Source of the DNA: Acidimicrobiia bacterium
GTDB lineage: Bacteria; Actinomycetota; Acidimicrobiia; Spongiisociales; ZC4RG35
Assembly: GCA_963665765.1 (NCBI GenBank)
Contig: OY762464.1
Location: 1,513,741-1,577,740, forward strand
Direction of reading: 5' to 3'
Length of the DNA: 64,000 nucleotides
Part shown: in pieces, positions 8,492-57,279 of the stretch
Position numbering within the stretch: the stretch's first letter is position 1
Layout: the number at the start of each line of letters is the position of its first letter
Notes under the pieces: model-generated
What the model was told of the DNA's origin: nothing
What the model saw: the letters and a program-made list of their open reading frames with translations, nothing else
The model's database searches: none
Made by a program: the position numbers and the translations under genes

Positions 8492-10696
8492 ATGAAAGGA
8501 ACCGTGAAAATTCAACGTAACAGATCCGCAAGGTGGCTCATTACCGGTCTGGTGGCAGTGCTCAGCCTGGTCGCGGCGGCTTGCGGCGGCGATGCCGAGG
8601 AGGAAACGACCACTACCCGGGCCACCGCCGAAGCCACCACTACCCAAGCGCCTGCCACGACGGAAGCTCCTCCAGAGCCTGTGGCGCCGGTTACTCAGGG
8701 GCCGGGTGGTGAGGAGGCTACTGCGTCGGGTGAGGTTGTTTTGAGTGGTGATGAGATTGCGCGGGTGCGGTCTGGGGGGTACACGGCGGCTTTGTTGTGG
8801 CATACGGCGGGTGCTTTTACCGATGCGGTGAGTCAGGGTGCTCGGGATGCTTTCGCGGAGTTGGGTGTTGAGGTGATTGCTGAGACGAATGCTCAGTTTG
8901 ATGCTGCTCAGCAGGCCAATGATGTGGAGACTGTGTTGGCGCAGGATCCTGACATCATTGTTAGTTTGGTGATTGATCCGGTGTCGGGTGCGGAGGCGTT
9001 TCGTCCGGCGGTCGAGGCCGGGGTGCAGTTGGTGTTTTTGAGTAATGTGCCCGAGGGCTATGTGCACGGTGTTGACTATGTGGGGGTGGTTACCGATGAT
9101 TTGGCGGCGATGGGGATGGCGGCTGCGGATCTGTTGGCGGATGCTTTGGGTGGTGTGGGGAAGGTGGGTTTCATCTTCCATGATGCTGCCTATTACGTGA
9201 CTAATCAGCGTGATCAGGCGTTCAAGACTTGGATTGAGCAGCGTTATCCGGGGATCGAGATCGTTTCTGAGCAGGGGTTGGCTGATCCGGCTCGGGCTGA
9301 GGAGATCGCGGCGGCGTTGTTGACGCGTAATCCTGATCTGGATGGTATTTATGCGCCGTGGTCGGCTGGTCCGGCTGATGGGGTGTTGGCTGCTTTGCGG
9401 GCGGCGGGTGCTTCGGATGTGGCGGTGGTGACGTTGGATCTGGACACCAATGTGTCGTTGGACTTGGTGGAAGGCGGGAACATTGTTGGTATCGCGGCGG
9501 ACGAGGCCTATGCGTTGGGACGGACCATGGCTTTGGAGGGTGCCTATGGGCTGGTTGGCAAGCAGGCGCCGCCGTTCACGGTGGTGCCGGCTATCGCGGT
9601 GACCGCTGACAATATCGTGGAGGCCTACCGGCAGTCACTAGCCACCGACCCACCCGCAGAAATCATGACAGCACTCGGCGAGTCCGTGCCTGTGGCGCCG
9701 GTTACTCAGGGGCCGGGTGGTGAGGAGGCTACTGCGTCGGGTGAGGTTGTTTTGAGTGGTGATGAGATTGCGCGGGTGCGGTCTGGGGGGTACACGGCGG
9801 CTTTGTTGTGGCATACGGCGGGTGCTTTTACCGATGCGGTGAGTCAGGGTGCTCGGGATGCTTTCGCGGAGTTGGGTGTTGAGGTGATTGCTGAGACGAA
9901 TGCTCAGTTTGATGCTGCTCAGCAGGCCAATGATGTGGAGACTGTGTTGGCGCAGGATCCTGACATCATTGTTAGTTTGGTGATTGATCCGGTGTCGGGT
10001 GCGGAGGCGTTTCGTCCGGCGGTCGAGGCCGGGGTGCAGTTGGTGTTTTTGAGTAATGTGCCCGAGGGCTATGTGCACGGTGTTGACTATGTGGGGGTGG
10101 TTACCGATGATTTGGCGGCGATGGGGATGGCGGCTGCGGATCTGTTGGCGGATGCTTTGGGTGGTGTGGGGAAGGTGGGTTTCATCTTCCATGATGCTGC
10201 CTATTACGTGACTAATCAGCGTGATCAGGCGTTCAAGACTTGGATTGAGCAGCGTTATCCGGGGATCGAGATCGTTTCTGAGCAGGGGTTGGCTGATCCG
10301 GCTCGGGCTGAGGAGATCGCGGCGGCGTTGTTGACGCGTAATCCTGATCTGGATGGTATTTATGCGCCGTGGTCGGCTGGTCCGGCTGATGGGGTGTTGG
10401 CTGCTTTGCGGGCGGCGGGTGCTTCGGATGTGGCGGTGGTGACGTTGGATCTGGACACCAATGTGTCGTTGGACTTGGTGGAAGGCGGGAACATTGTTGG
10501 TATCGCGGCGGACGAGGCCTATGCGTTGGGACGGACCATGGCTTTGGAGGGTGCCTATGGGCTGGTTGGCAAGCAGGCGCCGCCGTTCACGGTGGTGCCG
10601 GCTATCGCGGTGACCGCTGACAATATCGTGGAGGCCTACCGGCAGTCACTAGCCACCGACCCACCCGCAGAAATCATGACAGCACTCGGCGGATAA
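8492..10696 (+). CDS. Lipoprotein made of two tandem type-I periplasmic substrate-binding domains (ribose/sugar-binding-like ABC SBP)
   Basis: GGAGGA Shine-Dalgarno motif then ATG 8492; signal peptide with lipobox (LVAAACGG). Two consecutive 337-aa PBP-type-I domains that are 100% identical at DNA level. Confidence 0.75.
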   Translation: MKGTVKIQRNRSARWLITGLVAVLSLVAAACGGDAEEETTTTRATAEATTTQAPATTEAPPEPVAPVTQGPGGEEATASGEVVLSGDEIARVRSGGYTAALLWHTAGAFTDAVSQGARDAFAELGVEVIAETNAQFDAAQQANDVETVLAQDPDIIVSLVIDPVSGAEAFRPAVEAGVQLVFLSNVPEGYVHGVDYVGVVTDDLAAMGMAAADLLADALGGVGKVGFIFHDAAYYVTNQRDQAFKTWIEQRYPGIEIVSEQGLADPARAEEIAAALLTRNPDLDGIYAPWSAGPADGVLAALRAAGASDVAVVTLDLDTNVSLDLVEGGNIVGIAADEAYALGRTMALEGAYGLVGKQAPPFTVVPAIAVTADNIVEAYRQSLATDPPAEIMTALGESVPVAPVTQGPGGEEATASGEVVLSGDEIARVRSGGYTAALLWHTAGAFTDAVSQGARDAFAELGVEVIAETNAQFDAAQQANDVETVLAQDPDIIVSLVIDPVSGAEAFRPAVEAGVQLVFLSNVPEGYVHGVDYVGVVTDDLAAMGMAAADLLADALGGVGKVGFIFHDAAYYVTNQRDQAFKTWIEQRYPGIEIVSEQGLADPARAEEIAAALLTRNPDLDGIYAPWSAGPADGVLAALRAAGASDVAVVTLDLDTNVSLDLVEGGNIVGIAADEAYALGRTMALEGAYGLVGKQAPPFTVVPAIAVTADNIVEAYRQSLATDPPAEIMTALGG
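8677..10691 (+). repeat. Perfect tandem duplication: 1,004 bp x2, period 1,011 bp (8677-9680 and 9688-10691)
   Basis: Direct comparison of the two copies at their starts, middles and ends shows identical sequence. The junction carries a 7-nt linker, agtccgt. Confidence 0.85.
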
Positions 10697-17079: not shown

Positions 17080-18252
17080 ATGAGCAATTTGACTGGCGCG
17101 GCGGACGCGGTTCTGGATGGGGTGACATCGGGTAGCCCACGGGTGCCCGGCGTGGTGGCTTTGGCAACCAACCGGGAAGGCAACATCTATGAAGGAGCGG
17201 CAGGAGTCCGTTCCCTTGCCAACGGCGCGGCCATGACCACCGACACCATCTGCGCGATCTTCTCGACGACCAAGGCCATTGCCGGCACGGCCTGCCTGCA
17301 GTTGGTGGAGGAAGGCCGACTCGATCTGGACGCACCGGCGAAAAACTACACCCCCGAAATCGGGGAGCTGCAGGTGCTCGACGGGTTCGACGACCACGGG
17401 GACCCTATGCTGCGTCCGCCCAAGCGGGATGTGACCACCAGGATGCTCCTGCTCCATACCGCCGGTTTTGCCTACGATTTTTTCAACGAGCAGTACACCC
17501 GCTTGGCGCAGGATCATGGCCAGCCCAGTGTGGTTACCTCTTCGAAAGCAGCCCTGATGTCGCCCCTGCTGTTCGATCCGGGAGACGAATGGGAATACGG
17601 ATCGAACATCGACTGGGCTGGTCAGGTGGTCGAAGGCATCACCGGGAAACGCTTGGGCGAGGTGATGGAGGAACGGATTCTCGAACCCCTGGGAATGGAT
17701 TCCACCTCCTTTGACTTGAGTGACGAGACGCGCAGCCGTATGGCCAAAATCCACCAACGCGGCGACGATGGAGACTTGACGCCGCTTGACTTCGAGTTGC
17801 CCCCGGATCCCGAGGTGCATATGGCCGGCCATGGCTTGTATTCCACTGCCGAGGACTACGTCAAGTTCATCCGGATGTGGTTGAACGATGGCATGGGTCC
17901 CGGCGGGCAGGTGCTTTCCAAGGACACCGTGGAGATGGCGGTCCGGAACGGACTGGGCGAGATGAAGATCAAGGGTCTTCCCGGCGTCAATCCCATACTT
18001 TCCAACTATGCGGAGTTCTTCCCCGGAATGCCCAAATCTTGGGCCTTGACCTTCATGATCAACGACGAGGACGCCCCCACCGGACGCCCGGCGGGCGCCT
18101 TGGCCTGGGCCGGTCTGGCCAACCTCTACTACTGGATCGACCGGCAGAACGGGGTCGGCGGTTTCTGGGCTACCCAGATTTTCCCATTTGCCGACGCCAC
18201 CTCGGTGGGAGGTTTTCTGGACTTCGAGACGGCGATTTACAGCAACCTCTAA
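17080..18252 (+). CDS. Serine hydrolase, beta-lactamase/esterase family (class C-like)
   Basis: S-x-x-K active-site motif (FSTTK) and the fold of the EstB/PBP-like family. Confidence 0.75.
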
Positions 18253-18288
18253 ACAGATGGGGCGGTGGGCCAACCCTGAGCAGAAAAG

Positions 18289-18310
18289 GGGGTCCCAGGC
18301 GCGGGACCCC
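18289..18310. terminator. Perfect 8-bp GC hairpin (ggggtccc-aggcgc-gggacccc) downstream of the hydrolase gene
   Basis: Read directly from the sequence; no T-tract, as is common in high-GC genomes. Confidence 0.4.
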
Positions 18311-18689
18311 TATTCCGCATGAAAAGTCTTGGCCCGAATCCGCCGTTTGGGGTGTTGGGGGTGGCGGGTTCGCGAAATAAAGACGGCGGCAGTGGTTGAT
18401 CATGTCTCAGGCCAGGGCGCATATTGAGGGGGTCGAACACCTCTCCCGGTCCTCCCCGACGTCGTGGGGACCGCGCCGGAGGTCATAAGAGTTCTTCGGG
18501 AAACTGCTTCCCGCCGCCAACCCGTGGCGAAGCGTGTCCCGATCCTGGTGGTGAGCGGCGGGGGTGGGGCCCGACGGGCGGAAAATTGGATGTCGATTTT
18601 CGCGGGTTAGGGGTAGGTTTGGCGGAGCCACGCCAATGACCGCCCTAGCAACTGGGCGGCTTGGGGCCTGATGGGCAACGGGAAGGTGA

Positions 18690-19640
18690 TCAGCGGTAGC
18701 CGCCGCCCCGCCGAAGGCTGTCCAGGGTAACGGCGATGATCAGGATGGCGCCCCGCACCACCGATTGCCAGTAGATCTGCACCTGGAGCAGGATCAGGCC
18801 GTTCTGCACGACTCCGATGATCAGCAGTCCCAGGAGAGTCCCCAGCAAGCCTCCCCTACCTCCGCTCAAAGCGATCCCACCCAGAAGTACGGCGGCGATG
18901 ATGTCCAACTCTGCTCCGTTCAAAGCGCTCGGCAGCGCCGTGCCGCTCTGGGATGTGAGCATCAGGCCGGCCAGCCCTGCCAGACAGGCTTGGACCACAT
19001 ATGTCCAGCCTCGCAGGCGGTCAACCCTGATGCCGACATTGCGGCAGGCCTCGCTGTTGCCGCCGACGGCGTAGAGGTGACTGCCCGCCACGGTAAATCG
19101 CATGAAGAACATGCCCAATACCACCACCGCCAGGAACAACCAAACGGTGATGGGGGCGCCCAGCCAGGAACCCCTTCCCAGGTTGCTCCAAGCGTTGACC
19201 CCGACCACGATGTTGTCGCCACCGGTGGACACGAAGGCCAAGCCTCGATAGAAGAGCAGGGTTCCCAGGGTGGCGATAATCGGGTTGATCCGGAACTTGA
19301 CTATCAGCAGGGCGTTGAACGATCCCAGCACTCCCGCGGCCAGTATGCCCGCCACTCCGACCACCACGCTGTTGACATCCAGAGATATCAAGCTGGCGGT
19401 GACCATGCCGGCCACCGCCGCCACCGCCGCCATGGACAGGTCCAAACCCCCGGTGATCATGACAACGGTCAGGCCGATGGCGATCAGGCCCCTGATGGAG
19501 ATCGCCTGGCCGATGTTGATGAAATTGCGGGTGGTGAAGAAGAACTCCGATTGCCAGCTGAATAACGCGATCATCAGGAGCAGCGTGATGAACAGACCGA
19601 TCAGGGTCCAGTTGTCCTGTTTTTTGAAAGCCGAGATCAT
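18690..19640 (-). CDS. ABC transporter permease (RbsC/AraH-type), paralog of 10740-11753
   Basis: Hydrophobic multi-TM ORF; its ATG overlaps the upstream ATPase stop (ATGA). Confidence 0.75.
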   Translation of the reverse strand: MISAFKKQDNWTLIGLFITLLLMIALFSWQSEFFFTTRNFINIGQAISIRGLIAIGLTVVMITGGLDLSMAAVAAVAGMVTASLISLDVNSVVVGVAGILAAGVLGSFNALLIVKFRINPIIATLGTLLFYRGLAFVSTGGDNIVVGVNAWSNLGRGSWLGAPITVWLFLAVVVLGMFFMRFTVAGSHLYAVGGNSEACRNVGIRVDRLRGWTYVVQACLAGLAGLMLTSQSGTALPSALNGAELDIIAAVLLGGIALSGGRGGLLGTLLGLLIIGVVQNGLILLQVQIYWQSVVRGAILIIAVTLDSLRRGGGYR

Positions 19641-20410
19641 TGGTCTGCGCCGTTGTGGATTGACGGTGGCATAACGCCGGTTATCCATCCGATGATGTGG
19701 TTGGTGGTGATCGTCTTGGACGGCGCGTACGCCCAGAGTTTCCCTTGTCTCAACACGGCGATCCGGTCGGTGATGTCCAGGATGTCGCTCAGGTCGTGGG
19801 TGATCACCACCACCGCCTTGCCCTGTTTGCGCATGCCGGTGATGAGCTGATGCACCTGCTGAGTCTGTTCCACTCCCAGAGCCGCGGTGGGCTCGTCCAG
19901 CAACAGGATGTTTCCGCCCATCGCGATCGCTCGGGATAAGGCTACGGCTTGGCGCTGTCCTCCGGACAGCAACTCGACATCCACTTTCTGGGAAGGCAAC
20001 CGGATATTGAGATCATCCAGCATGACCGTGGCGTCGCGTTCCATCTTGCGGCGATCCAAAAAGAGCCCGAAGCGGCGGGGTTCCCGGCCCAGGTAGATGT
20101 TGTGAGAGACCGGCCGGGTCTCCACCAGGGCCAGATCCTGATAGACGGTGGCTATTCCCAAGGCCTGGGCCTCGGCCGGATGGCTGATGGTGACCGGCTT
20201 GCCTTGGTACTCGAAAGAACCCTGGTCGGGGCGGTGGTTGCCGGACAGGATCTTGATCAGGGTGGACTTGCCGGCCCCGTTGTCGCCCAGCAGGCCGAGC
20301 ACCTCTCCTGCATACAGGTTCAAGCTGACATCGACCAGAGCGTGAACCTGCCCGAATGCCTTGGAGACATTCGACATCGCCATCAACGGTTGTTGGTTAT
20401 GCGTGTTCAT
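19637..20410 (-). CDS. ABC transporter ATP-binding protein (half-size), paralog of 12942-13700
   Basis: GDNGAGKSTL, LSGGQRQ and LLDEPT motifs. Confidence 0.85.
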   Translation of the reverse strand: MNTHNQQPLMAMSNVSKAFGQVHALVDVSLNLYAGEVLGLLGDNGAGKSTLIKILSGNHRPDQGSFEYQGKPVTISHPAEAQALGIATVYQDLALVETRPVSHNIYLGREPRRFGLFLDRRKMERDATVMLDDLNIRLPSQKVDVELLSGGQRQAVALSRAIAMGGNILLLDEPTAALGVEQTQQVHQLITGMRKQGKAVVVITHDLSDILDITDRIAVLRQGKLWAYAPSKTITTNHIIGWITGVMPPSIHNGADQ

Positions 20411-20494
20411 ACCTCAAATCGCTAAAGGCTTTCTGAGTGCCAGGCATCCAAACCGCAGTCGGAACGCCTGGCACTCTACGTGTCGTTTTCTCCT

Positions 20495-22518
20495 CTATCC
20501 AGGATAGAGATCGTGGACGTTTTCTCGGGTTACCGGGGAGACCGACGGGATCAGCCGTTCGGGGACGGTATTCCCTTCGATCAGGTCCACAATGGCCGGC
20601 ACCAGGTACTGGCCGTAGCGCTCGGGGAAGTAGGAGATGGTGGCTTTGAACACCGACTCGTCGTCGGAGCGTCCCCGCAGATCTACCAGCGCCTCGTCAG
20701 AGGCGCCCAGGCTGGCTGCGGCAGCGTGGCCCAAGAAGCCACTTTGCTCCAACGCCAATGCGCAGTCCACGCCGGGTTGGTCGCTGTGTCCGAAGCAGAG
20801 CACGTGCTTGGCGTCGGGGTTGCCGGTGGCCCAGGTGGTTACGTTGGGAAGGGTGTCGGTGAGACCCTCGGTGGGAATGTCGTGGACGTTCTCGTCGGGA
20901 ATGGCAAAGGTCTCCCGAACGCCGTCTCGGGCGCCGTCGGCGCGGGCCTTGTGGACGGGCACGTCCGGGGTCCAGATCAACAGCAGTTCGGTCTCTTCCG
21001 GCGCCCAACCCTGTTCCTGGGCGAAGGCGGCCAGGAAGCGTCCGGCCTCCAACGCGGCGTTGTAGTTGTCGGGGCCGAAGGCCACGCATCCGGGGTGGGG
21101 TCCGTCGTAGGAGACGCAGGGGATCCCGGCGTCGTGGAAGATCCCGGAGATGAGTTCTTCGGTGCCGGCGATCCAGTTGGCGAAGATCACTCCGTCAACT
21201 TCCTGGGTGACCAGCAGGTTGGAGCACTCCACGGTCCTTTCCTGGTCGTAGGCGTTGTCGCAGTAGACGATCTCCACGCCCATCTCGGCTGCGATGGCGT
21301 TGATGTTGTCGGTCACGCTGTCGGTGAACGGAATACCCGAAAGCCCGTCACCGTAACCTAGCCTCCAGGGTTGCTCGGCTGCCCTGATCACGGCCTCGTA
21401 TTCGTCGCCGGAACCCATGGCTTCTTCGTCCAGTTCGCCTCCGGGGTACAAGTCCTCGACGTTGTCGCGGGTGACTGGTTCAACCGAGGGGATCAGCCTT
21501 TCGGGTATGTCGGTGCGTCCCTCGATGAGGTCGACTATGACCGGCACCAGGTACTGGCCGTAGCGCTCGGGGAAGTAGGAGATGGTGGCTTTGAACACCG
21601 ACTCGTCGTCGGAGCGTTCGCGCAGTTCGACCAGCGCTTCGGTGGAGGCGCCGGTCCCTACCGCGGCGGCATTGCCCAGGAACCCGTTCTGTTCCAGCGC
21701 CAGACCGCAGTCCACGCCGGGTTGGTCGCTGTGTCCGAAGCAGAGCACGTGCTTGGCGTCGGGGTTGCCGATCGACCAGGTGGTTACGTTGGGAAGGGTG
21801 TCGGTGAGACCCTCGGTGGGGATGTCGTGGATGTTGTCATCAGGAATGTCGAACAACTCCCGAACGCCGTCGGTGGCGCCATCGGCCCGGGCCTTGTGGA
21901 CGGGCACGTCCGGGGTCCAGATCAACAGCAGTTCGGTGTCGGCGGGATCCCATCCTTGGTCCATTGCGTATTGGGCCAGGTAGCGACCGGCGGCCACGCC
22001 GGCTTCGTAGTTGTCGGGGCCGAAGGCCACGCATCCGGGGTGGGGTCCGTCGTAGGAGACGCAGGGGATCCCGGCGTCGTGGAAGATCCCGGAGATGAGT
22101 TCTTCGGTGCCGGCGATCCAGTTGGCGAAGATCACTCCGTCAACTTCCTGGGTGACCAGCAGGTTGGAGCACTCCACGGTCCTTTCCTGGTCGTAGGCGT
22201 TGTCGCAGTAGACGATCTCCACGCCCATCTCGGCTGCGATGGCGTTGATGTTGTCGGTCACGCTGTCGGTGAACGGAATACCCGAAAGCCCGTCACCATA
22301 ACCAATCTTCCAAACTTCTGTGGCCGGACGGATCACGGCCTCGTAGGGACCGCTGGGCATCGCCGGCTCTTCTTCCACCACGGTTTCCTCGGGGGTTTCT
22401 TCAACCGCGGCGGCGGTGGTTACGGGGGCGTCGGTGGGGGCGGGCGCCTCGTCGTCCTCTCCGCAGGCTGCCACCAACAGGGCGACAACCGCAATTCCAA
22501 CTATCAATTTGCGTGGCA
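20495..22518 (-). CDS. Lipoprotein with two tandem type-I periplasmic substrate-binding domains (ABC SBP)
   Basis: Start MPRKLIVGIAVVALLVAACGE (lipobox). Two roughly 315-aa repeats with high amino-acid identity, including a 290-bp core that is identical at DNA level (21062-21352 vs 22007-22297). Confidence 0.7.
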
Positions 22519-22669
22519 TTCTCAACCTTTCTCTTATGCATCTAAGTGGCGAGGAATCCTTCGCCAACCGGGACGTACCCCACGACCGGCAGGTCGGTAT
22601 AAAGCGGAGGTGCCCGGTAAAAAATATCCTAACCCCACCCGCCGGAAGAGGGGGGAGCCTCAACCGACA

Positions 22670-23968
22670 TTATTTTGGCCGAGATCGCCCTTGCGCGTAT
22701 CGGATAAGGCTCTGATTCACCGGATCGTCGGGACAGAAATCTCCGGGTTCCAGATTCGACACCCCCACTCTCTGGCCGCCCCGGAACACCTCTCGCACCC
22801 TTCTTATATCTGCTATTTCGGAGAGGGGATTTCCTTCCACAACCAGAAGGTCGGCGGCTTTTCCCTGCTCCAGGGTTCCGGTCAGATGATCCACCCGAAG
22901 CCTCCGGCCGGCCTCCCGGGTGGCGGCGGCCAGAACGTCGGCAGGGGCAAGACCCGATTGATGCAACATCGCCAGTTCATCGTGAAGACCGAAGCCCGGG
23001 ATCAGGTAGGGCCAGGGCGCATCGGTGCCGACGATGATGGGCACCCCGGCTTGATGGAACGAAGGAATGGCCTTCCGCATCTCTTCGATGGCCGCCCTCC
23101 GATCTCGGGAGCCTTCCGGATCATGGCGGTGCGGGAAGGCGTCCCATGCTTGCCTGATCTCGGAGGGAACCCAACGAAGCCGTCGGTCGGGTTGGCGGAC
23201 GAAATGGCTCAGGCGGGCCAGCCGATCCCACACCACCAGAGTGGGGCATAGGGCGGTATTGGCTTTCGCCATCGTCTCGGCCACTTGTTCGAGGTCCACC
23301 AGATGGGCGCCGTTGAAGGGATCGATGATCCCGCTCAGGTGCTGCAGTTCGGCTACTCCTGCCCGAGCCGCTTCCCGGGCGTTCACCTTCCCCAGGTGAG
23401 CCACCACCGGCACATCGTGGCGCCGTCCCGCCGCCACCGCCGCTTCGACCTGTTGCAGATCCAGGTGAACGTAGAGCTTGATCTCGTCAACCCCGGCGGC
23501 GGCCAGCCGCTTGATCTTGGCGGCCACGGCTTCGGGAGTGGAGTGACCTTCTCCCAGCAGGGGCCAGTTGACGTGCCGGCCGTCCAACACCGGTCCGCAG
23601 CAGCGAATCCGGGGAGTGGGCCGGGGATCGGCGGCCAATCGTCGCCGCAATCCCAATATCCATTCGAGATCGTTTCCGATATCCCGAACGGTGGTCACTC
23701 CGGCTGCCAACAGGGCAGGGATCATCCAGGAGGTCAGATGGGTGTGAGCATCAATCAAGCCAGGCAAGAGCGTGCATCCCCGAAAGGCCATCCGTTCCAG
23801 GTTTCCGGGAAGGCCCTTGGCATCTGTCACCCCTTCTATCCGGCCGCCGGAGATCACCAGGGCCTTGCCGGATCGAACCTCGCGATCTGGCGGGTTCCAC
23901 ACCAGGTCGGGGACGAGCGCCAGTCGCCCGGTGGGAGAGTTTCGAGAAGATGGGGATTGGTGTATCAC
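22670..23968 (-). CDS. Amidohydrolase family metal-dependent hydrolase
   Basis: GLIDAHTHL metal-binding motif; first gene of the minus-strand ABC operon. Confidence 0.7.
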   Translation of the reverse strand: MIHQSPSSRNSPTGRLALVPDLVWNPPDREVRSGKALVISGGRIEGVTDAKGLPGNLERMAFRGCTLLPGLIDAHTHLTSWMIPALLAAGVTTVRDIGNDLEWILGLRRRLAADPRPTPRIRCCGPVLDGRHVNWPLLGEGHSTPEAVAAKIKRLAAAGVDEIKLYVHLDLQQVEAAVAAGRRHDVPVVAHLGKVNAREAARAGVAELQHLSGIIDPFNGAHLVDLEQVAETMAKANTALCPTLVVWDRLARLSHFVRQPDRRLRWVPSEIRQAWDAFPHRHDPEGSRDRRAAIEEMRKAIPSFHQAGVPIIVGTDAPWPYLIPGFGLHDELAMLHQSGLAPADVLAAATREAGRRLRVDHLTGTLEQGKAADLLVVEGNPLSEIADIRRVREVFRGGQRVGVSNLEPGDFCPDDPVNQSLIRYAQGRSRPK

Positions 23969-24052
23969 GGAGAGTCAGCCGGTCGGGGCGTTGAATTACC
24001 CTACCGGTGGCGAGTTCTGCTGTCCCGCCTTCGCCCTAGCCTCTTTTAGACC

Positions 24053-24832
24053 ATGACAGATGACCGACTTTCTCTGGGAGCGGGACTGGCCGGCCGGGGG
24101 GTGATTGTTACGGGCGCGGCCAGCGGTATTGGAAGAGCCACGGCTCGTCTGGCGGCGGACTGCGGGGCGCGTGTGTGCGGAGTGGACTTGAACGGTGCCG
24201 CGTTGCGCCAGGAAATGGAGGAGTGGGACCACCCCGATCGCCACCTGGCCATCGAGATCGACTTGACCGGCCCCGACGCGCCTTGTGGGGTGGTTGACGC
24301 CGCGTTGGAAGAGTTGGGTGATCTGTGGGGATTGGTGCACTGTGCGGGAGTTCTGATCCGCCGATCGAGCACGGCGGAGATCACTCGGGAAGATTGGGAC
24401 ATCCAGCACGACATCAACCTGAAGGCGTCCTTTTTCTTGAATCAAGCTGTGGGAGAGGCGCTTCGAACCGGGGGCCAAGGCGGACGTATGGTCACTCTCA
24501 GTTCCCAGGGATGGTGGACGGGCGGAAGCCACGGATCGGTGGTCTACTCGGCTTCCAAGGGGGGAATCGTCTCCATGTGCCGTGGTCTTTCCACCGCCTA
24601 TGCTCCCTATGGGATCACGGTGAACTCCATAGCGCCCGGGGTGGTGGACACACCCATGCTGGGGGCCGGTTTGACGTCGGACGACCTGGAGGCTATTGCC
24701 GCCTCCTGTCCGATGGGTCGGCTGGCCCGCCCCGAGGAAATCGCCCGGGTGGCGGTTTTCCTGCTGTCCGACCATGCCGGTTACATTTCGGCGGCCACGA
24801 TAAATGTCAGTGGGGGGCTGCTCTTTTACTGA
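24053..24832 (+). CDS. SDR family short-chain dehydrogenase/reductase
   Basis: TGAASGIG Rossmann motif and catalytic YxxxK (YSASK). Confidence 0.85.
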   Translation: MTDDRLSLGAGLAGRGVIVTGAASGIGRATARLAADCGARVCGVDLNGAALRQEMEEWDHPDRHLAIEIDLTGPDAPCGVVDAALEELGDLWGLVHCAGVLIRRSSTAEITREDWDIQHDINLKASFFLNQAVGEALRTGGQGGRMVTLSSQGWWTGGSHGSVVYSASKGGIVSMCRGLSTAYAPYGITVNSIAPGVVDTPMLGAGLTSDDLEAIAASCPMGRLARPEEIARVAVFLLSDHAGYISAATINVSGGLLFY

Positions 24833-29882: not shown

Positions 29883-30359
29883 ATGTGGTTCCGCAAGGTT
29901 ACGGCCGGGGCATTTGGTCACTTGCGCGACGAGAGCTTGAAGTTCGGGAAGGCTCTCAATATTGTCTACGGACCCAATGAGTCAGGAAAATCGACGTGGC
30001 ATGCCGCCTTGGTAGCAGCTCTGTGCGGACAGAAACACGGTAGTGGACGCACCAAGGCGGAGCGGAATTTCAAGAGACGCCGTAAGCCTTGGGACGACCC
30101 GGATCGATGGCATATCGCCTTGGAGTTGGTGTTGAATGATGGGCGAATATTTGAGATTGATCGCGACCTGAATGTTCCGAGGACCAGGGTTCTCGATATA
30201 GGTATGGGTGGGAGAGAACCAACCGATGACCTGATGAACCAGGGCAGTCCCGACGGCGCCAGATGGCTCGGGCTTGACCGAAACAACCTTTCCGCTGACA
30301 GCCTCGGTCAGCCAGGCAGACATACTTTCGATACTCAATCTGGGGACGCGACAGCGTAA
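29883..30359 (+). CDS. SbcC/Rad50-like AAA ATPase, N-terminal Walker A fragment (out of frame with the remainder)
   Basis: GPNESGKST P-loop. The ORF terminates at 30359 while the homologous protein continues in the +1 frame. Confidence 0.6.
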   Translation: MWFRKVTAGAFGHLRDESLKFGKALNIVYGPNESGKSTWHAALVAALCGQKHGSGRTKAERNFKRRRKPWDDPDRWHIALELVLNDGRIFEIDRDLNVPRTRVLDIGMGGREPTDDLMNQGSPDGARWLGLDRNNLSADSLGQPGRHTFDTQSGDATA

Positions 30360-33012
30360 AAGCGAGCGTGATGCTTTGCAAGAGCGTCTCGCTCGGGCGG
30401 CGGCGGGTGGAGCGGGTGATACGGCGGCGGGAGCTATTGAGCGCATTAGGAAGTTCTCAACTGAGAACGTAGGACTCGATCGCAGGAATGCGAAAAGACC
30501 CCTCCGACTTGCGATCGAAGGCGTGAAGAGAGCTGAAATCCAACTGTCGAAGACCCGTGACCGCCGTCAAGAATATGTGGATCTAGCAAGAAGAGCGGAT
30601 AGGACTCGGCGAAATGTCCGGTTGCTGGAGGGTCAGCAGGCAGCGCTAAGGGCATTAGGAGCCAGAGACGAAGCCGAAGCACGGGCAAATCAATTGCTGG
30701 AACAAACAACAAGGCTGGAGGAGTGGGAGCGGCGCTTTGTTGATGGGGATCCGCGTGCTCGGAGGGAAGTGAATATGGCGGAGTTGGTGGTTGCTCTGAG
30801 TGGTGCTCGGGGTGCGCCTGGGTCTGTTGGGACGGATCTTGATCCGTTGGAGGTTCTTGAGGGTCGGTTGGAGGAGTTGGATCGGCAGAGGGCGTTGGTT
30901 GAGGCGTTTGAGGGCTTGGAGGAAGCTGAGATGCGGGCGGAGGAGTTGGAGCGGGAGGTCAAGCGTCTTGAGAGGTGGGAACAACGGTTTCCTGATGCGG
31001 ATCCACGCAATCGGGAACTGATGAGTTTTACCGACATTGCTTCCGCGGTTACCCGATGCAACAACCTGCCAAAGCCCGGGTTCACGGACATTGATCCTCT
31101 GAAGATTCTTGAGGAACGCATCTCCATGCTCGATGACTCATCCCCGAAGCCATGCCCTAGCCCCGGTGATGTCCAGCGGTGGATAATCCCCTTGCGAGAA
31201 ACGCCTCCCCCTCCGAGGCAGGAACTGCAGTCACAGATATCGGAAGCCAGGCGCAAGAACGCACCCCCGAAGGCCAATTCGTTGGCCCGGGGGAGACTGA
31301 TCCTGTCCGCCATGGTCGGCGTTGCCGCGGCCGTCGCGGTCTGGATGGCTACAGCAAGAATTCTTTACGGAGTCTTGGCCGGAGTTCCGGTGGCTCTGGG
31401 ATTGATGTTTCTTCGAGTCGGTTCTTCCAGGCATGGACCCGTGGCATCTGTCGATATCAATTTGCTGGAACGGCAACTGCGGGAACGGGACACACTCGAT
31501 GCCAGGGTCGCGCAAGCCCATCGGTTCCTTCGGGAGTGGGAGCTTCCTCTTGACCCGGATGCCGCCATAGCCGAGTTCTATAACAGGGAACGCGCTTGGA
31601 GCGAGCAAACCACTGAACGGCGAAGGCTCGAAGAGATGGTCGCTCGGCGGAGGCGGCTTGATGATGATGAGGCGCAGCGGATTGCTGAACGGGAGAGCGC
31701 TTTTGGCGAGTTGCGGAACGTCGTTGTTCTGTACGGAGGAGATGCATCCGGTGACGAGGGCCAGATTCTCGGTGAGGCTACGTATTTGCTGAATGATCTT
31801 CAGCGGGTGGCGCGAGATCGACAACAGGATGCTGCGGAGTGGGGACGGTTTCAGGAAGCGCTGGCGGGCCGTTCCGTAGAAGAATGGCGAGCTGAAGCTG
31901 GAAGCTGTAGACAACACGCGGAGCTAGCGAGAAGTAGAGCGGAGAATTTGGCTGCCGGGTTTAGTGGTGAGATTTTGGAAATGAAGAGTATCGAAGCCGA
32001 ACGGGAAAAGATTAAGGGAGCGATCTTCCGCCGACGGCGGTTTGATGAGGATGAGGCGAGGCGGTGTGTGGCGAGGGAGGAGGCTTTTGGGGAGTTGCGG
32101 AGGGTGGTGGTCTTGTATGGGGGGGATGGTTCTGGTGGGGAGGGCGAGGTTTTGAGGGTGGCTGATGGTTTGTTGGATCGTTTTGAGCGTTTGGCGCAGC
32201 AGCGGAGTGGGGATGTTGCGGAGTGGGGACGGTTTCAGGAGGCGCTTGGGGGTCGTTCGGTAGAAGAATGGCGGGCTGACGCCGACCTTGCCAGTCGTGA
32301 AGCGAGGAAAGCCGGACAAAAGGCTGATGAGTTGGCGCCCGCTTTAGAGCAGGAATTGCTGCGTTCTGATAGCAGGGAGACGGATCGCTTCCTGCGAGAT
32401 GCGAAGGAGGAAGCGATCAGAACTGCCGGTCAACTGGAGCAGATAGACACAGACTTGGTGGATGTGGCCACGGCACAGTCCGTTCTTGATGAAGCCAAGC
32501 TTGAGTTAGAGCGGGTACAGCGCCTTCAGAGGACCTTAAACATCGCCAGTGAACACCTGCAACGAGCTGCTGAGCACGCCCATCGGCTGCTCGCGCCAAG
32601 GTTGGAAGCTCTCATGAAGGAGTGGATCCCGATCATTACCGGAGATCGTTATGTGGACGTGCTCGTCGATCCAGAGACACTTGAGGTGAAATTGCGTCAT
32701 ATGGATGGCATGATTAGGGAGGCGGCGCTCCTGTCATATGGAACAGCCGAGCAGGTGTACTTACTGTTGCGGATGATTCTCGCTCAGGTATTGACCGACG
32801 GACACGAACCATGTCCGGTGTTGCTCGACGATCCCACCGTGCATGCCGACCTCGATCGCAAGGAGCAGGTGCTGGAGTATCTTCTCCAGGCATCTGACAA
32901 CTTTCAGGTGATCCTATTCACCCAGGACCAACTCGTGGAGCAATGGGCCAGTTCCCGCCGTTCTGATCATAGAATCAAGCTCCTCGAACTCACGGTTCCC
33001 GTGGTTGGCTGA
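30274..33012 (+). CDS. SbcC/YhaN (SbcE)-like ATPase body: coiled-coil arms, central double TM hairpin, C-terminal signature/Walker B/D-loop
   Basis: C-terminus LLSYGTAEQVYLLLR...VLLDDPTVHADLDR is an SMC/SbcC-type signature and Walker B. Central LILSAMVGVAAAVAVWMATARILYGVLAGVPVALGLMFL reads as two TM helices. Two pairs of internal diverged repeats. Confidence 0.6.
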   Translation: MTETTFPLTASVSQADILSILNLGTRQRKSERDALQERLARAAAGGAGDTAAGAIERIRKFSTENVGLDRRNAKRPLRLAIEGVKRAEIQLSKTRDRRQEYVDLARRADRTRRNVRLLEGQQAALRALGARDEAEARANQLLEQTTRLEEWERRFVDGDPRARREVNMAELVVALSGARGAPGSVGTDLDPLEVLEGRLEELDRQRALVEAFEGLEEAEMRAEELEREVKRLERWEQRFPDADPRNRELMSFTDIASAVTRCNNLPKPGFTDIDPLKILEERISMLDDSSPKPCPSPGDVQRWIIPLRETPPPPRQELQSQISEARRKNAPPKANSLARGRLILSAMVGVAAAVAVWMATARILYGVLAGVPVALGLMFLRVGSSRHGPVASVDINLLERQLRERDTLDARVAQAHRFLREWELPLDPDAAIAEFYNRERAWSEQTTERRRLEEMVARRRRLDDDEAQRIAERESAFGELRNVVVLYGGDASGDEGQILGEATYLLNDLQRVARDRQQDAAEWGRFQEALAGRSVEEWRAEAGSCRQHAELARSRAENLAAGFSGEILEMKSIEAEREKIKGAIFRRRRFDEDEARRCVAREEAFGELRRVVVLYGGDGSGGEGEVLRVADGLLDRFERLAQQRSGDVAEWGRFQEALGGRSVEEWRADADLASREARKAGQKADELAPALEQELLRSDSRETDRFLRDAKEEAIRTAGQLEQIDTDLVDVATAQSVLDEAKLELERVQRLQRTLNIASEHLQRAAEHAHRLLAPRLEALMKEWIPIITGDRYVDVLVDPETLEVKLRHMDGMIREAALLSYGTAEQVYLLLRMILAQVLTDGHEPCPVLLDDPTVHADLDRKEQVLEYLLQASDNFQVILFTQDQLVEQWASSRRSDHRIKLLELTVPVVG

Positions 33013-42877: not shown

Positions 42878-44329
42878 TTATAGAGGCAAATGGGGTTGCT
42901 TCTCTGATAAGACCCAATGCGCCTGCGGATCCCTCGGGGAGTTCCCTACCCACTCAACTAGCCCTAAGGCCTTCAGAGTCTTGACATGACGCAGAATGGT
43001 GGGTCGGGAACGACCGGTGGCGGCCATCAGATCACCCGTGGAGAGCTGTTTTTCAATCCGCATGAGTTGCAACAGATCACGGGCTGTTTTCGGTAGCTGC
43101 CTCTCCCGATCCAGATCGGCTGGATGGGCAAACAAGGTCAAGTGAACTGAGGATGCTCTCTGCTGATATACAGGGTCAACCAGACTCTCCCTCCGCATCC
43201 GGTCGAACATACGACGGATCCCTTCCCCCAACTCCTGACCAAAGCGCATATCTGCACAGACCCGGGCAATGTTGGGATTGCGGGCGTAACGTGTCACTTC
43301 AAAAGGATCTGCTCCCCCAGCTAAGCCGGGAAACCGTCCTGGGCTGTGAACCTCAATGCGGTCATGGAAAACCTCAACGCGAATGTGGTCTCCGGCCATG
43401 CTATATGAGCGATGCACGACTGCGTTCACCAGAGCCTCCGTCCACACTTCTCTCGGAATGATTGGTACAGATTCGAATCTGCCCTGCCCTCTGAAAGCTT
43501 CCCGTGTAGGTATCAAGCTCTCAAGAAGACGACGTGCCTCCTTGATCTGATTGAGCAGGGGTCCATCCACTTGCAGATCTGTTTCCAGTTGCTGGCCGCG
43601 GCCGACGCCCCGGGTAATTCCTCGATATCTCAAGAGGCGCACGCGAGCCTGTGGAAACCATGCTTGCGGTGTCCTCCCGAACAGCAAACCAGCGGCGACT
43701 GTGATCTGCCCAGCCCGATCTACCAGTCCCCTGGCCATCAGCAGGCGCTCTGCGTTAGTGGTGCCCATCGCTGAAACCCAGGACTCCACGGAGCGAACAT
43801 CCAAATCCGTGGAGTTGGCATCAGGTATTGGCGTTGCCTCATAAATGCTCTGGCCCTTTTCGTAGAGCAGCTCTCTTCGCTGATTGAACCGGAGCTTTCG
43901 GGTTTCGTCGCCCACACGTAGATACACGTCGTCGGCGACTGTGGCGTGGACCACATTTGATTTTCTGATGTGGATAACAAACAGATGATCTCTTCCACCT
44001 TCATCGTTGCGACATGCCAACATCTCGGTGGAGATGGGCACAACCGGTAAGGTAAAGTCGATTGCGGCCTGTTGCCAGGATGCCAGCAACTTTGGTCCAG
44101 AACGGTCGATTCCCACCCTGCATTTCTCGGTTGCTTTCTTGCGGTCCTTTTGTAGACCAACCACAATCACCCCCCCGTCAGCATTGGCAAACGCCACCAA
44201 GGCGTTTGCCAGATCTCTCGACGCAACACGCGGGCCCTTGCGCTCGAACCACTGGCCCTCGGGAACCTGGCAGAGCAACAGGCCGCGTTGAGATTCGTTT
44301 GATGACAGTGCTTGCTCGATGTCGATCAC
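42878..44329 (-). CDS. Schlafen/AlbA_2 DNA-binding domain plus HATPase_c_4 ATP-binding domain plus C-terminal HTH protein
   Basis: N-terminal AlbA_2-like region (EGQWFERKG...LVAFANADGG), a central ATPase-like domain, and a C-terminal winged-helix (ILRHVKTLKALGLVEWVG). Lower-GC context. Confidence 0.55.
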   Translation of the reverse strand: MIDIEQALSSNESQRGLLLCQVPEGQWFERKGPRVASRDLANALVAFANADGGVIVVGLQKDRKKATEKCRVGIDRSGPKLLASWQQAAIDFTLPVVPISTEMLACRNDEGGRDHLFVIHIRKSNVVHATVADDVYLRVGDETRKLRFNQRRELLYEKGQSIYEATPIPDANSTDLDVRSVESWVSAMGTTNAERLLMARGLVDRAGQITVAAGLLFGRTPQAWFPQARVRLLRYRGITRGVGRGQQLETDLQVDGPLLNQIKEARRLLESLIPTREAFRGQGRFESVPIIPREVWTEALVNAVVHRSYSMAGDHIRVEVFHDRIEVHSPGRFPGLAGGADPFEVTRYARNPNIARVCADMRFGQELGEGIRRMFDRMRRESLVDPVYQQRASSVHLTLFAHPADLDRERQLPKTARDLLQLMRIEKQLSTGDLMAATGRSRPTILRHVKTLKALGLVEWVGNSPRDPQAHWVLSEKQPHLPL

Positions 44330-48345: not shown

Positions 48346-49857
48346 ATGGAGTTGAATAGCTATACAAGTCTCAGAAGAGATCAGACAGCACAACGTCTCC
48401 GCTGGATTGCGGACTCCTTGAACAAGAAGCTGGAGACCGGGTCTGACCGAGGTGATCGGGCGACGAAGGGGCAGTTCGCGACTCCTTCAGAAGCTGCCAC
48501 CTCGGTCGTTGAACTCCTTGATCTGACCCATATGGAACGGTATCGGATCGTGGATGCAGGTGCCGGGTCGGGAGCACTCATGCTAAGCCTTGTTGCCTTG
48601 GCGATAGAGACTGGAGTCATCGCACGGCTGACTATAGACCTGGTCGAAAGAGACGAATCTGCGCTACTTCTTCTCCAGGATGCGGTAGCCGACGTATGTC
48701 TTGCAGCTGCTTCTCATAATCTTGATCTGGAACTCAATATCATTGAGGCCGACTTCCTAGACCCAAATCATTGGGGGTCTCAGCCCTACGACATTGCCGT
48801 AATGAATCCACCGTATAGCAAACTCGGCCCGGATTCGACTTCGAGGGAATTAACTCGCCTTGAGACCGGGGTCGATTGTCCAAATGCGTACGCTGCCTTC
48901 GTCGCGACTGCGTTGACACTTCTTACAGACGGTGGGCAGTTGGTTGCTATTACGCCCCGCTCGTTTGCCAATGGTCGCTACTTTTGTCCTTTCAGGAGGT
49001 TCCTTTCCGAGGTTGCCGCCTTCAGGCATGTGGTCCTCTTCGACCGTAGAGACCGAATCTTCCGTTCGTCGTCGGTGCTTCAGGAGACCGTAATCTTTAG
49101 GTTGGATAAGTCGACAAGACCGGAGGCCACACGGGTCGTTGTGGAGACTCGGTTGGATCACGAAACGATGGCCCATGACGTGCATGAGGTGCCGCAGTCG
49201 ACCATCATCTCGCCTGCGGATCCTGATCGGTTCATCAACCTTCCCGGCAATCCCGAGGTGATGGAGGTCGCGACACGGCTTCGCTCCTACGGAGAAACAC
49301 TCGGCTCGCTCGGTCTCTCGGTCTCCACCGGCCCAGTTGTTGACTTCCGATCGAAGGAGCTTCTGACAACCGCGGAGGATCCCGCAGCCGTTCCTCTCAT
49401 TTATCCACGTAATGTGCGCTCTGAGAGTGTTTCTTGGCCGGTCAGCGGTGCCAAGGCTCAAGGTTTTATTCGGACAGCTAAGTCTGCGAAACAGCTGTAT
49501 CCCAATGGACATTACGTCCTAGTCAAGAGGTTCACTGCAAAAGAAGAGAAAAGGCGAGTTGTCGCCGCTGTCTATGAGCCGATTGATGGGTTCAAGGAAG
49601 TGGCCTTCGAGAACCACATCAATGTCATCCATTGCAAAAGGTTACCAATCCCATGTGGCTTAGCGGAGAAGATCGCCGATTACCTGAACAGCGATGATGT
49701 AGACATCTACTTCCGTATGTTCAGCGGCAATACGCAGGTAAACGCCACCGATCTACGAAGGCTCCACTTCCCATTGGAGGCACCGCTCGGGCTCAACACC
49801 ACTCTTGATCCCAAAGGGCAACAGGTTTCGCTGTTTGGAGGCGCAGTGGCTGTCTGA
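48346..49857 (+). CDS. N6-adenine DNA methyltransferase (Eco57I/BsuBI-PstI M-type)
   Basis: AdoMet motif I (VDAGAGSGAL) and motif IV NPPY (AVMNPPYSKLG). Low-GC gene (about 52%). Confidence 0.7.
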   Translation: MELNSYTSLRRDQTAQRLRWIADSLNKKLETGSDRGDRATKGQFATPSEAATSVVELLDLTHMERYRIVDAGAGSGALMLSLVALAIETGVIARLTIDLVERDESALLLLQDAVADVCLAAASHNLDLELNIIEADFLDPNHWGSQPYDIAVMNPPYSKLGPDSTSRELTRLETGVDCPNAYAAFVATALTLLTDGGQLVAITPRSFANGRYFCPFRRFLSEVAAFRHVVLFDRRDRIFRSSSVLQETVIFRLDKSTRPEATRVVVETRLDHETMAHDVHEVPQSTIISPADPDRFINLPGNPEVMEVATRLRSYGETLGSLGLSVSTGPVVDFRSKELLTTAEDPAAVPLIYPRNVRSESVSWPVSGAKAQGFIRTAKSAKQLYPNGHYVLVKRFTAKEEKRRVVAAVYEPIDGFKEVAFENHINVIHCKRLPIPCGLAEKIADYLNSDDVDIYFRMFSGNTQVNATDLRRLHFPLEAPLGLNTTLDPKGQQVSLFGGAVAV

Positions 49858-56940: not shown

Positions 56941-57279
56941 ATGTCTGATTTTCTGAAACGCCCCAGACTTCCTGCCGGCATCGACGGTTCCCGCCGCGAT
57001 CTGTGGGAGGAATTCCGGCGACAGCCGTTCGGCAAGCACTCTCCAGACCTTCAGGCGCTGCTGGAATACATGCGCGGCGGTCCCATTACGGGGAAGTATT
57101 TCCTGAAGCTGACCGGCCCTCATTCAGAGTGGACGCTGGCGCGGTACAGCGACACTTTTCCCCTGACCACCGCAAACCTTGACGAGCATGTCTTCACCAC
57201 CATCGAAGACGCCGAGTATTTTGTCTTCCGCCGCCGCTGGGAGGAGATGTTCGGTGTCGACCCGGGAGCGGGCTCGTGA
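56941..57279 (+). CDS. Small hypothetical protein, possible small subunit of the downstream DMFase-like enzyme
   Basis: 112 aa; its stop overlaps the GTG start of the large ORF (GTGA), suggesting translational coupling. Confidence 0.35.
   Translation: MSDFLKRPRLPAGIDGSRRDLWEEFRRQPFGKHSPDLQALLEYMRGGPITGKYFLKLTGPHSEWTLARYSDTFPLTTANLDEHVFTTIEDAEYFVFRRRWEEMFGVDPGAGS

Follow-up and report, generated by a model that had tools for sequence, protein, structure and literature searches.

Repeated intragenic gene conversion as the very probable source of a sequence mosaic in a two-module substrate-binding lipoprotein gene of an Acidimicrobiia bacterium

How can two copies of a domain within one gene be identical to the last nucleotide in some stretches, and nearly saturated with silent changes in others? 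This question is raised by a gene for a substrate-binding protein (SBP), here called locus B, on the minus strand of a 64,000-nucleotide (nt) stretch of contig OY762464.1 (positions 1,513,741 to 1,577,740; assembly GCA_963665765.1, Acidimicrobiia bacterium), which we refer to as the window in its entirety. A sequence-only reading of the window had described two periplasmic-binding protein (PBP) domains in this gene, sharing an identical core between diverged flanks, and had proposed intragenic gene conversion. Our analysis suggests that locus B very probably encodes a two-module lipoprotein of a CUT2-like importer, which arose through an old in-frame duplication and was then subject to repeated, patch-wise intragenic gene conversion. 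The mosaic of identical and diverged tracts is itself real and far beyond chance.

The gene and the parts of its product, including the two modules D1 and D2, are arranged as follows, 'alpha' and 'beta' denoting the two sequence types in the diverged segments:

20495..22519, minus strand: coding sequence of the two-module SBP lipoprotein, 674 amino acids (aa), with its stop codon at 20495-20497
22463..22519, minus strand: lipobox-bearing signal peptide, MPRKLIVGIAVVALLVAAC, with predicted lipidation at Cys19 (direct sequence reading, conserved in orthologues)
22349..22462, minus strand: acidic, Pro/Thr-rich disordered tether, residues 20-57 (AlphaFold2 predicted local distance difference test score, pLDDT, <50 for residues 1-57)
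21440..22348, minus strand: module D1, residues 58-360, complete type I PBP fold, 'alpha' in the diverged segments (first stretch of the Pfam PF13407 match, AlphaFold2, Foldseek, alpha/beta painting)
21404..21439, minus strand: inter-module linker GGELDEEAMGSG, residues 361-372 (12 residues; AlphaFold2 pLDDT <50; junction common to proteins P0001-P0009)
20498..21403, minus strand: module D2, residues 373-674, complete type I PBP fold, 'beta' in the diverged segments (Pfam, AlphaFold2, Foldseek, alpha/beta painting)

The mechanically called open reading frame (ORF) spans 20495..22663 on the minus strand, but the likelier start is the ATG at 22519 (MPRKL..., lipobox VAAC), in line with orthologues, which begin at MPRKL or MSRKL; the gene boundary of 22518 proposed earlier is thus off by one. 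The lipobox was called by eye from the sequence and from its conservation in orthologues. A Pfam search matched the protein to Peripla_BP_4 (PF13407) in two stretches with 122.2 bits (cutoff 35.1), and in the AlphaFold2 model (mean pLDDT 76.9) low-confidence linkers connect two full folds, each of them two-lobed. Both of the domains described earlier are therefore complete SBP modules of ~300 aa. Foldseek matched each of them to arabinose-, ribose- and galactofuranose-binding proteins (4kzk, 7e7m and 2vk2; target-normalised template-modelling (TM) score 0.7-0.8, E 1e-13 to 1e-17), although identity to solved SBPs is only 14-23%, and it returned no PDB entry spanning both modules (query-normalised TM score <=0.37 for all matches). 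A sequence search of the PDB gave only remote ribose- and arabinose-binding proteins (E ~1e-5), and NCBIfam gave no equivalog for the SBP, its sole match being sub-threshold and MalI-like. The product is hence predicted to be the SBP of an ATP-binding cassette (ABC) transporter, of type I (cluster B) and CUT2-like. One predicted cleft loop differs between the modules (GTGAST vs SLGASD); both variants are widespread in the family, so that the difference says nothing about function.

Pairwise comparison of the modules shows a core of 291 identical nt, one more than first reported, at the proposed period of 945 nt. The flanks do include diverged blocks, as had been claimed, but are not diverged throughout, as another four tracts in them match exactly (77, 65, 50 and 45 nt). 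The identical tracts are:

22007..22297, minus strand: probable main conversion tract, D1 copy, 291 nt, covering the N-lobe from beta1 to the GPDNY hinge
21062..21352, minus strand: probable main conversion tract, D2 copy, 291 nt, identical to 22007-22297 at period 945
20943..20992, minus strand: exact tract of 50 nt (= 21888-21937), 0/15 synonymous changes
20761..20875, minus strand: exact tracts of 65 and 45 nt (20761-20825 and 20831-20875, partners at +945), 0/35 synonymous changes, split by two adjacent replaced codons (SI/AT)
20596..20672, minus strand: exact tract of 77 nt (= 21541-21617), 0/25 synonymous changes

In the codon alignment of D1 and D2 (311 codons), 222 codons are identical, 44 differ synonymously and 45 non-synonymously, with the differences strongly clustered; the 942-nt spacing of one repeat family results from a one-codon indel near the 3' end. 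Counting degenerate codons at which both modules encode the same amino acid, the identical blocks contain 0/170 synonymous changes (synonymous divergence, dS, 0.008; non-synonymous divergence, dN, 0.005), whereas the intervening diverged blocks contain 44/88 (dS 1.36, dN 0.26; their ratio, omega, ~0.19). Divergence along the gene is thus anything but uniform, contrary to the pattern that the sequence-only reading had named as refuting conversion. Shuffling of the site order never reached the observed run of 97 identical codons (0/20000 with all codons, 0/20000 with synonymous-capable codons; p<5e-5), and a GENECONV-style test on 311 clade-polymorphic sites detected a run of 66 matching sites inside the 291-nt tract (p<=1e-4). 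Overall, the modules of the window protein are 88% identical, and they remain distinct in the first C-lobe helix, in the beta-strand/helix around GASxEALV and in the C-terminal tail. The SI/AT island was considered as a selected specificity site; this was unsupported, since it falls at the end of a surface helix, judging from predicted secondary structure and analogy with RbsB.

For comparison with relatives, we denote the window sequence WIN, loci by L numbers and proteins by P numbers. A protein search detected ~13 full-length two-module orthologues (637-706 aa) in independent assemblies, on contigs of up to 3.3 Mb, plus many one-module relatives, and a scan of one genome per species produced 39 loci, mostly from Acidimicrobiia metagenome-assembled genomes (MAGs), many carrying sponge-derived names and several labelled as chromosomes. 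Segments were compared using the DNA of ten two-module orthologues, of which four (L002, L004, L007 and L009) are NODE-type, apparently short-read MAGs with less secure phasing of the variable blocks; the key results persist in the large-contig subset alone.

The core is 99.7-100% identical between D1 and D2 of WIN, and 88-95.6% identical (best 0.94-0.956) between WIN and the orthologues, falling to 71% for the most distant, L010. For 13/22 domains, the nearest neighbour is the own paralogue. This comparison bears on the idea that the core is identical owing to extreme constraint, be it on protein function, on mRNA structure or on an overlapping antisense gene. The core does encode the most conserved part of the protein, with many invariant columns, and long antisense ORFs overlap it. 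Constraint would, however, preserve the core between species too, and the orthologues differ from WIN by 4.4-12% there (29% for L010), with 66 clade-polymorphic sites inside the tract. Moreover, a scan at E<=0.1 detected no Rfam element in 18000-24500, so no RNA element accounts for the conservation, and the long plus-strand ORFs over the SBP gene are ordinary high-GC shadow ORFs, given the lack of between-species conservation in the core that they cover. We therefore give constraint, which the sequence-only reading had itself named as the competing explanation, hardly any credence.

The variable segments behave differently from the core: those of WIN D1 are nearest to orthologous D1s (0.81) and those of WIN D2 to orthologous D2s (0.84), vs 0.69 to their own partner. 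The junction peptide YPGGELDE.AM is common to P0001-P0009, and both it and the distinct N-terminal tether are found throughout the clade. Positional orthology of the D1 and D2 variable segments, together with the shared junction, implies that the duplication and the alpha/beta divergence predate the species, and that the identical tracts are secondary. Consistent with this, painting of 114 diagnostic sites as alpha or beta shows that D1 of the window is alpha throughout and D2 beta throughout, matching the orthologues.

These data allow two further explanations to be weighed. In the first, the tandem duplication would be very recent, its patches having diverged fast under diversifying selection, with the identical tracts as unmutated remnants. 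A second two-module gene in the window, locus A, does look fresh, with 1,004 identical nt, and in many relatives D1 is almost the same as D2. The diverged blocks of locus B are nonetheless close to saturation, and their omega of 0.19 indicates old divergence under purifying rather than positive selection; the alpha/beta segments, furthermore, show positional orthology in no fewer than five other species and the junction is clade-wide, making recent duplication extremely improbable. The second explanation also starts from a recent duplication, after which one module would have imported its diverged segments from other strains or species. A possible parallel is P0011, whose D2 tail is akin to a different single-module lineage than its D1 tail. 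No near-identical external donor was found for the variable segments of WIN, the best match being 0.81-0.84, and the same arrangement of alpha in D1 and beta in D2 recurs in several species, so we regard import as highly improbable here.

Gene conversion between old modules is also consistent with the variation among genomes. The longest exact run shared by D1 and D2 is 86, 95, 134, 167, 182, 231, 291, 620, 837, 845 or 863 nt depending on the genome, and overall D1-D2 identity spans 0.83 to 0.995. Tract boundaries in the alpha/beta painting differ from genome to genome, with the last few D1 codons being alpha in all of them. The sister lineages L005 and L008 are separated by a dS of 0.30, yet dS between D1 and D2 inside each genome is ~0.02, indicating that the two were homogenised independently after their split. 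Between species, omega is 0.03-0.15 for both D1-D1 and D2-D2 comparisons, which shows strong purifying selection on both modules, with neither decaying. In 6/10 genomes a conversion boundary lies at codon ~100, where the 35-40% diverged var1 helix starts; this fits the dependence of recombination on sequence identity. Together, the dS contrast, the permutation and GENECONV-style tests and the position-wise orthology of the variable segments uphold intragenic gene conversion as first proposed, in several tracts rather than one.

Comparison of module number in orthologues, as suggested by the sequence-only reading, showed that each of the five intact orthologues whose contigs are Mb-scale or labelled as chromosomes (L001, L003, L005, L006 and L008) has two modules. 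Contigs of L011, L014 and L035 (NODE-type, apparently short-read MAGs) end inside the gene, as expected of a real internal repeat. Two loci depart from the pattern. In the chromosome-labelled L037 (OZ244034.1, 6001-7600), the SBP gene is decayed, with frameshifts and a deletion that fuses D1 to the middle of the permease, D2 and the ATPase being lost. At the syntenic locus of L013 (6178-7080, a NODE-type MAG), there is a one-module version, which could reflect either genuine loss of a module or collapse by the assembler.

Exact repeats of 291 and 1,004 nt tax short-read assemblers, and with the one-module version in L013 they raise the concern that the gene is an assembly artefact, in which one module or two strain variants were threaded twice, or near-identical parts were collapsed to exact identity. 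We consider this very unlikely. The duplication is in frame at both loci of the window, and the unique junction peptide of locus B is kept in ten independent assemblies, some with Mb-scale and chromosome-labelled contigs; the alpha-D1/beta-D2 arrangement seen in orthologues also argues for correct phasing. An artefact could at most inflate the exactness of the tracts, and not make a 170-fold contrast in dS.

A further route to homogeneous modules is an accordion of unequal crossing-over, i.e. repeated collapse to one module followed by re-duplication. In the tree, one-module proteins branch among those with two modules, P0014 looks like a single-module hybrid of D1 and D2, and repeat periods vary between distant lineages from 302 to 326 aa, all of which would fit such a process. 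The tracts in the window, however, are internal, with alpha or beta flanks on both sides, and a crossover would alter the copy number; likewise, the homogenised L005 and L008 retain both the ancestral junction and the distinct 3' end of D1. An accordion is thus unlikely to explain locus B, though it may contribute in distant lineages. The patches are internal, lie between position-specific sequence on either side and involve no change in copy number, a pattern that non-reciprocal gene conversion accounts for most simply.

In the model that we favour, the importer would consist of a lipid-anchored two-module SBP, one permease and one half-size ATPase. A whole module and part of the tether would have been duplicated in frame in an ancestor of this clade of Acidimicrobiia. 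Homologous recombination between the two resulting 0.93-kb direct repeats, which we infer to be conversion of the RecA type, would then recurrently copy patches from module to module, leading to concerted evolution. In this genome, the latest events would have homogenised the 291-nt N-lobe core and the four shorter tracts, while a divergence of ~30-40% likely blocks heteroduplex extension, so that the alpha and beta segments stay distinct.

Perfect 0.9-kb direct repeats are readily lost through recombination. That two modules nevertheless persist in many lineages, both of them under purifying selection, suggests that selection retains the two-module state. A possible benefit comes from GlnPQ, in which tandem substrate-binding domains (SBDs; Lactococcus lactis GlnP SBD1-SBD2) raise the number of binding sites near the pore (PMC8025302). 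By analogy, both modules of locus B might bind solute and dock competitively on one shared homodimeric translocator, thereby raising the local density of binding sites.

Several points weigh against this overall interpretation. The core contains almost no diagnostic sites, so the direction of conversion is not readable there. Should the window stem from a short-read assembly, a few true D1/D2 differences could have been lost from the 'exact' tracts through bubble-popping, which would leave the conclusion unchanged; variable-block phasing across the 291-nt tract would in that case rest only on consistency with orthologues. The functional benefit of two modules is an analogy with GlnPQ only. Finally, two-module and one-module proteins are interleaved in the domain tree, and outside the clade of the window, recurrent duplication and collapse are inseparable from long-term homogenisation.

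The SBP gene lies within a conserved gene neighbourhood, in which the ATPase and then the permease follow directly downstream, an order that is syntenic in ~35 loci:

22670..23968, minus strand: amidohydrolase directly upstream of the SBP, syntenic with it across the clade
19637..20410, minus strand: ABC ATPase with a single nucleotide-binding domain (NBD), 257 aa, matching only the N-terminal half of RbsA/AraG/YtfR-type ATPases
18690..19688, minus strand: ABC permease, BPD_transp_2, AraH/RbsC-like; its likely start is an internal Met at ~19640

The fold of the modules and the type of permease and ATPase suggest a monosaccharide-like solute, although the amidohydrolase and a short-chain dehydrogenase/reductase (SDR), both conserved neighbours, leave room for another substrate. 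We considered whether the half-size ATPase is tied to the tandem SBP and rejected this, since single-module relatives carry the same half-size ATPase. Adjoining the transporter operon is a gene strongly matching the equivalog of the methyl acetate hydrolase AcmB (17080-18252, plus strand; 677 bits vs a cutoff of 550), which is syntenic in close orthologues.

The other two-module gene of the window is the following:

8453/8492..10696, plus strand: locus A, two-module Peripla_BP_4 SBP lipoprotein, with 8677-9680 identical to 9688-10691 over 1,004 nt at period 1011

Its junction, AGTCCGT (7 nt, 9681-9687), matches neither flank, and the duplication is in frame. Among its orthologues, 12 at 76-91% identity have near-identical modules and a common 'LGE...' junction, and one orthologue has an exact run of 1,008 nt; in a distant clade at 57-60% identity the modules have clearly diverged, being ~50-55% identical to each other. 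Loci A and B are only remote relatives (BLASTP E ~0.004). The sequence-only reading was hence right to count two independent double-domain SBPs in the window, but 'paralogous' is too strong a term for their relationship. By these comparisons, locus A is an independent case in an unrelated SBP family that behaves like the family of locus B. Beyond loci A and B, the window encodes two more SBPs, SBP_bac_5 and SBP_bac_1, each with a single module.

Near-identical halves are also found further afield. P0010-P0016, with 53-71% identity to the window protein, consist of two nearly identical halves with exact nucleotide runs of 716-863 nt, and the cluster representatives P0175, P0176 and P0178, at 29-33% identity, again have near-identical halves; those of P0168 and P0172 have diverged. 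Module-module identity in relatives reaches 99.7%. Alpha and beta were considered as two ancient functional types, which was rejected because the GTGAST/SLGASD and EALVEL/EALVDL variants occur in all combinations across single-module relatives. In the distant two-module orthologue P0011 (L041, 3001-5121), the C-terminal tail of D1 resembles the single-module lineage P0028/63/64 and that of D2 resembles P0062/65/67, a similarity that may point to exchange not only among modules but also among lineages.

More tentatively, and as a reading that is less likely than not to be right, we suggest that locus B belongs to a widespread, undescribed class of 'double-headed' type I SBP lipoproteins, in which selection would keep two modules and persistent conversion would keep them near-identical twins. 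Its members may span two or more unrelated subfamilies of Peripla_BP_4 and, at identities as low as ~30%, occur both in Acidimicrobiia associated with sponges and in MAGs that carry a Chloroflexota label. Occasional escape from conversion may then yield diverged modules, as with alpha and beta here and in P0087-92, P0168 and P0172. If true, this class would be a natural type I counterpart of the tandem-SBD principle of GlnPQ, and a tractable bacterial model for concerted evolution inside a single gene.

Like GlnPQ, locus B has two complete binding units per extracytoplasmic polypeptide, a short flexible linker and a membrane tether beside a homodimeric translocator, all predicted in our case. 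Unlike in GlnPQ, where the SBDs are of type II (cluster F, amino-acid-binding, PAAT family) and fused to the permease, the modules here are of type I (PF13407) and form a free lipoprotein: the SBP gene terminates at a separate stop codon and is parted from the permease gene by that of the ATPase, so that no transmembrane domain is fused to the SBP. The SBD1 and SBD2 of GlnPQ have also diverged and differ in specificity, whereas the modules of locus B are highly similar and are being homogenised. With the CUT2 importers RbsABC, AraFGH and YtfQRT, the system shares the SBP fold and Pfam family, the AraH/RbsC-like permease and the RbsA/AraG/YtfR-type ATPase; the canonical arrangement, however, is one SBP module with a fused double-NBD ATPase of ~500 aa, as opposed to two modules and a single-NBD protein here. 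Sensors with tandem Venus-flytrap/PBP domains, such as BvgS, carry type II, mutually diverged modules fused to signalling domains. They, too, have two PBP-fold modules in series per extracytoplasmic polypeptide, but the locus B protein is without an output domain and belongs to an ABC transporter operon.

Concerted evolution by gene conversion is known from tufA/tufB in enterobacteria, from rRNA operons and from identical tandem repeats of Gram-positive surface proteins. As in cases of the tufA/tufB type, copies within a genome are closer than orthologues, tracts are mosaic and the process is homology-dependent; unlike there, the repeats are halves of a single ORF, each a complete 300-aa binding module. 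Gene conversion between tandem repeats is textbook knowledge and tandem binding domains are known from GlnPQ. In open-access full text, we found no description of free tandem type I SBPs or of concerted evolution of SBPs, but only the work on GlnPQ. What is new is the type I free-lipoprotein architecture, the occurrence of two unrelated SBP families of this kind in one genome, and the clade-wide, stage-by-stage record of concerted evolution.

For transport, these proteins offer a natural setting for testing why binding sites have multiplied in ABC importers, a question hitherto studied in the type II, permease-fused GlnPQ. For evolution, they are a clean and statistically strong case of concerted evolution within one bacterial gene, with sister species at stages from 83% to 99.5% module identity, opening up the study of tract lengths, of divergence barriers and of the escape of modules from conversion. 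For metagenomics, they carry a caution, as short-read assemblies break or collapse such genes, and module numbers and SBP counts taken from MAGs can be wrong.

Other features of the window are set down here as separate observations. A 912-aa ORF (30274-33012, plus strand) has no Pfam match; much of it is coiled-coil-like, with a central hydrophobic stretch and an SMC/Rad50-like C-terminal end, and contains an internal repeat of ~128 aa (31827-31898 vs 32211-32282, 72 nt at 89% identity). The single-module SBP_bac_5 (family-5 SBP; 54805-56679, minus strand) has an N-terminal tether made from a 21-nt-periodic, Ala/Glu-rich low-complexity repeat (56297-56560). A protein with Schlafen AlbA_2, HATPase_c_4 and helix-turn-helix (HTH) domains (42878-44329, minus strand) is encoded a few kb from an Eco57I/N6_Mtase-like methyltransferase (48346-49857, plus strand), and these two genes may be defence-related. 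Lastly, the window encodes a protein resembling the beta-subunit of N,N-dimethylformamidase (DMFA2_C; 57276-59507, plus strand), and a similar gene pair adjoins the two-module SBP operon in the distant relative L041 (1-2353).

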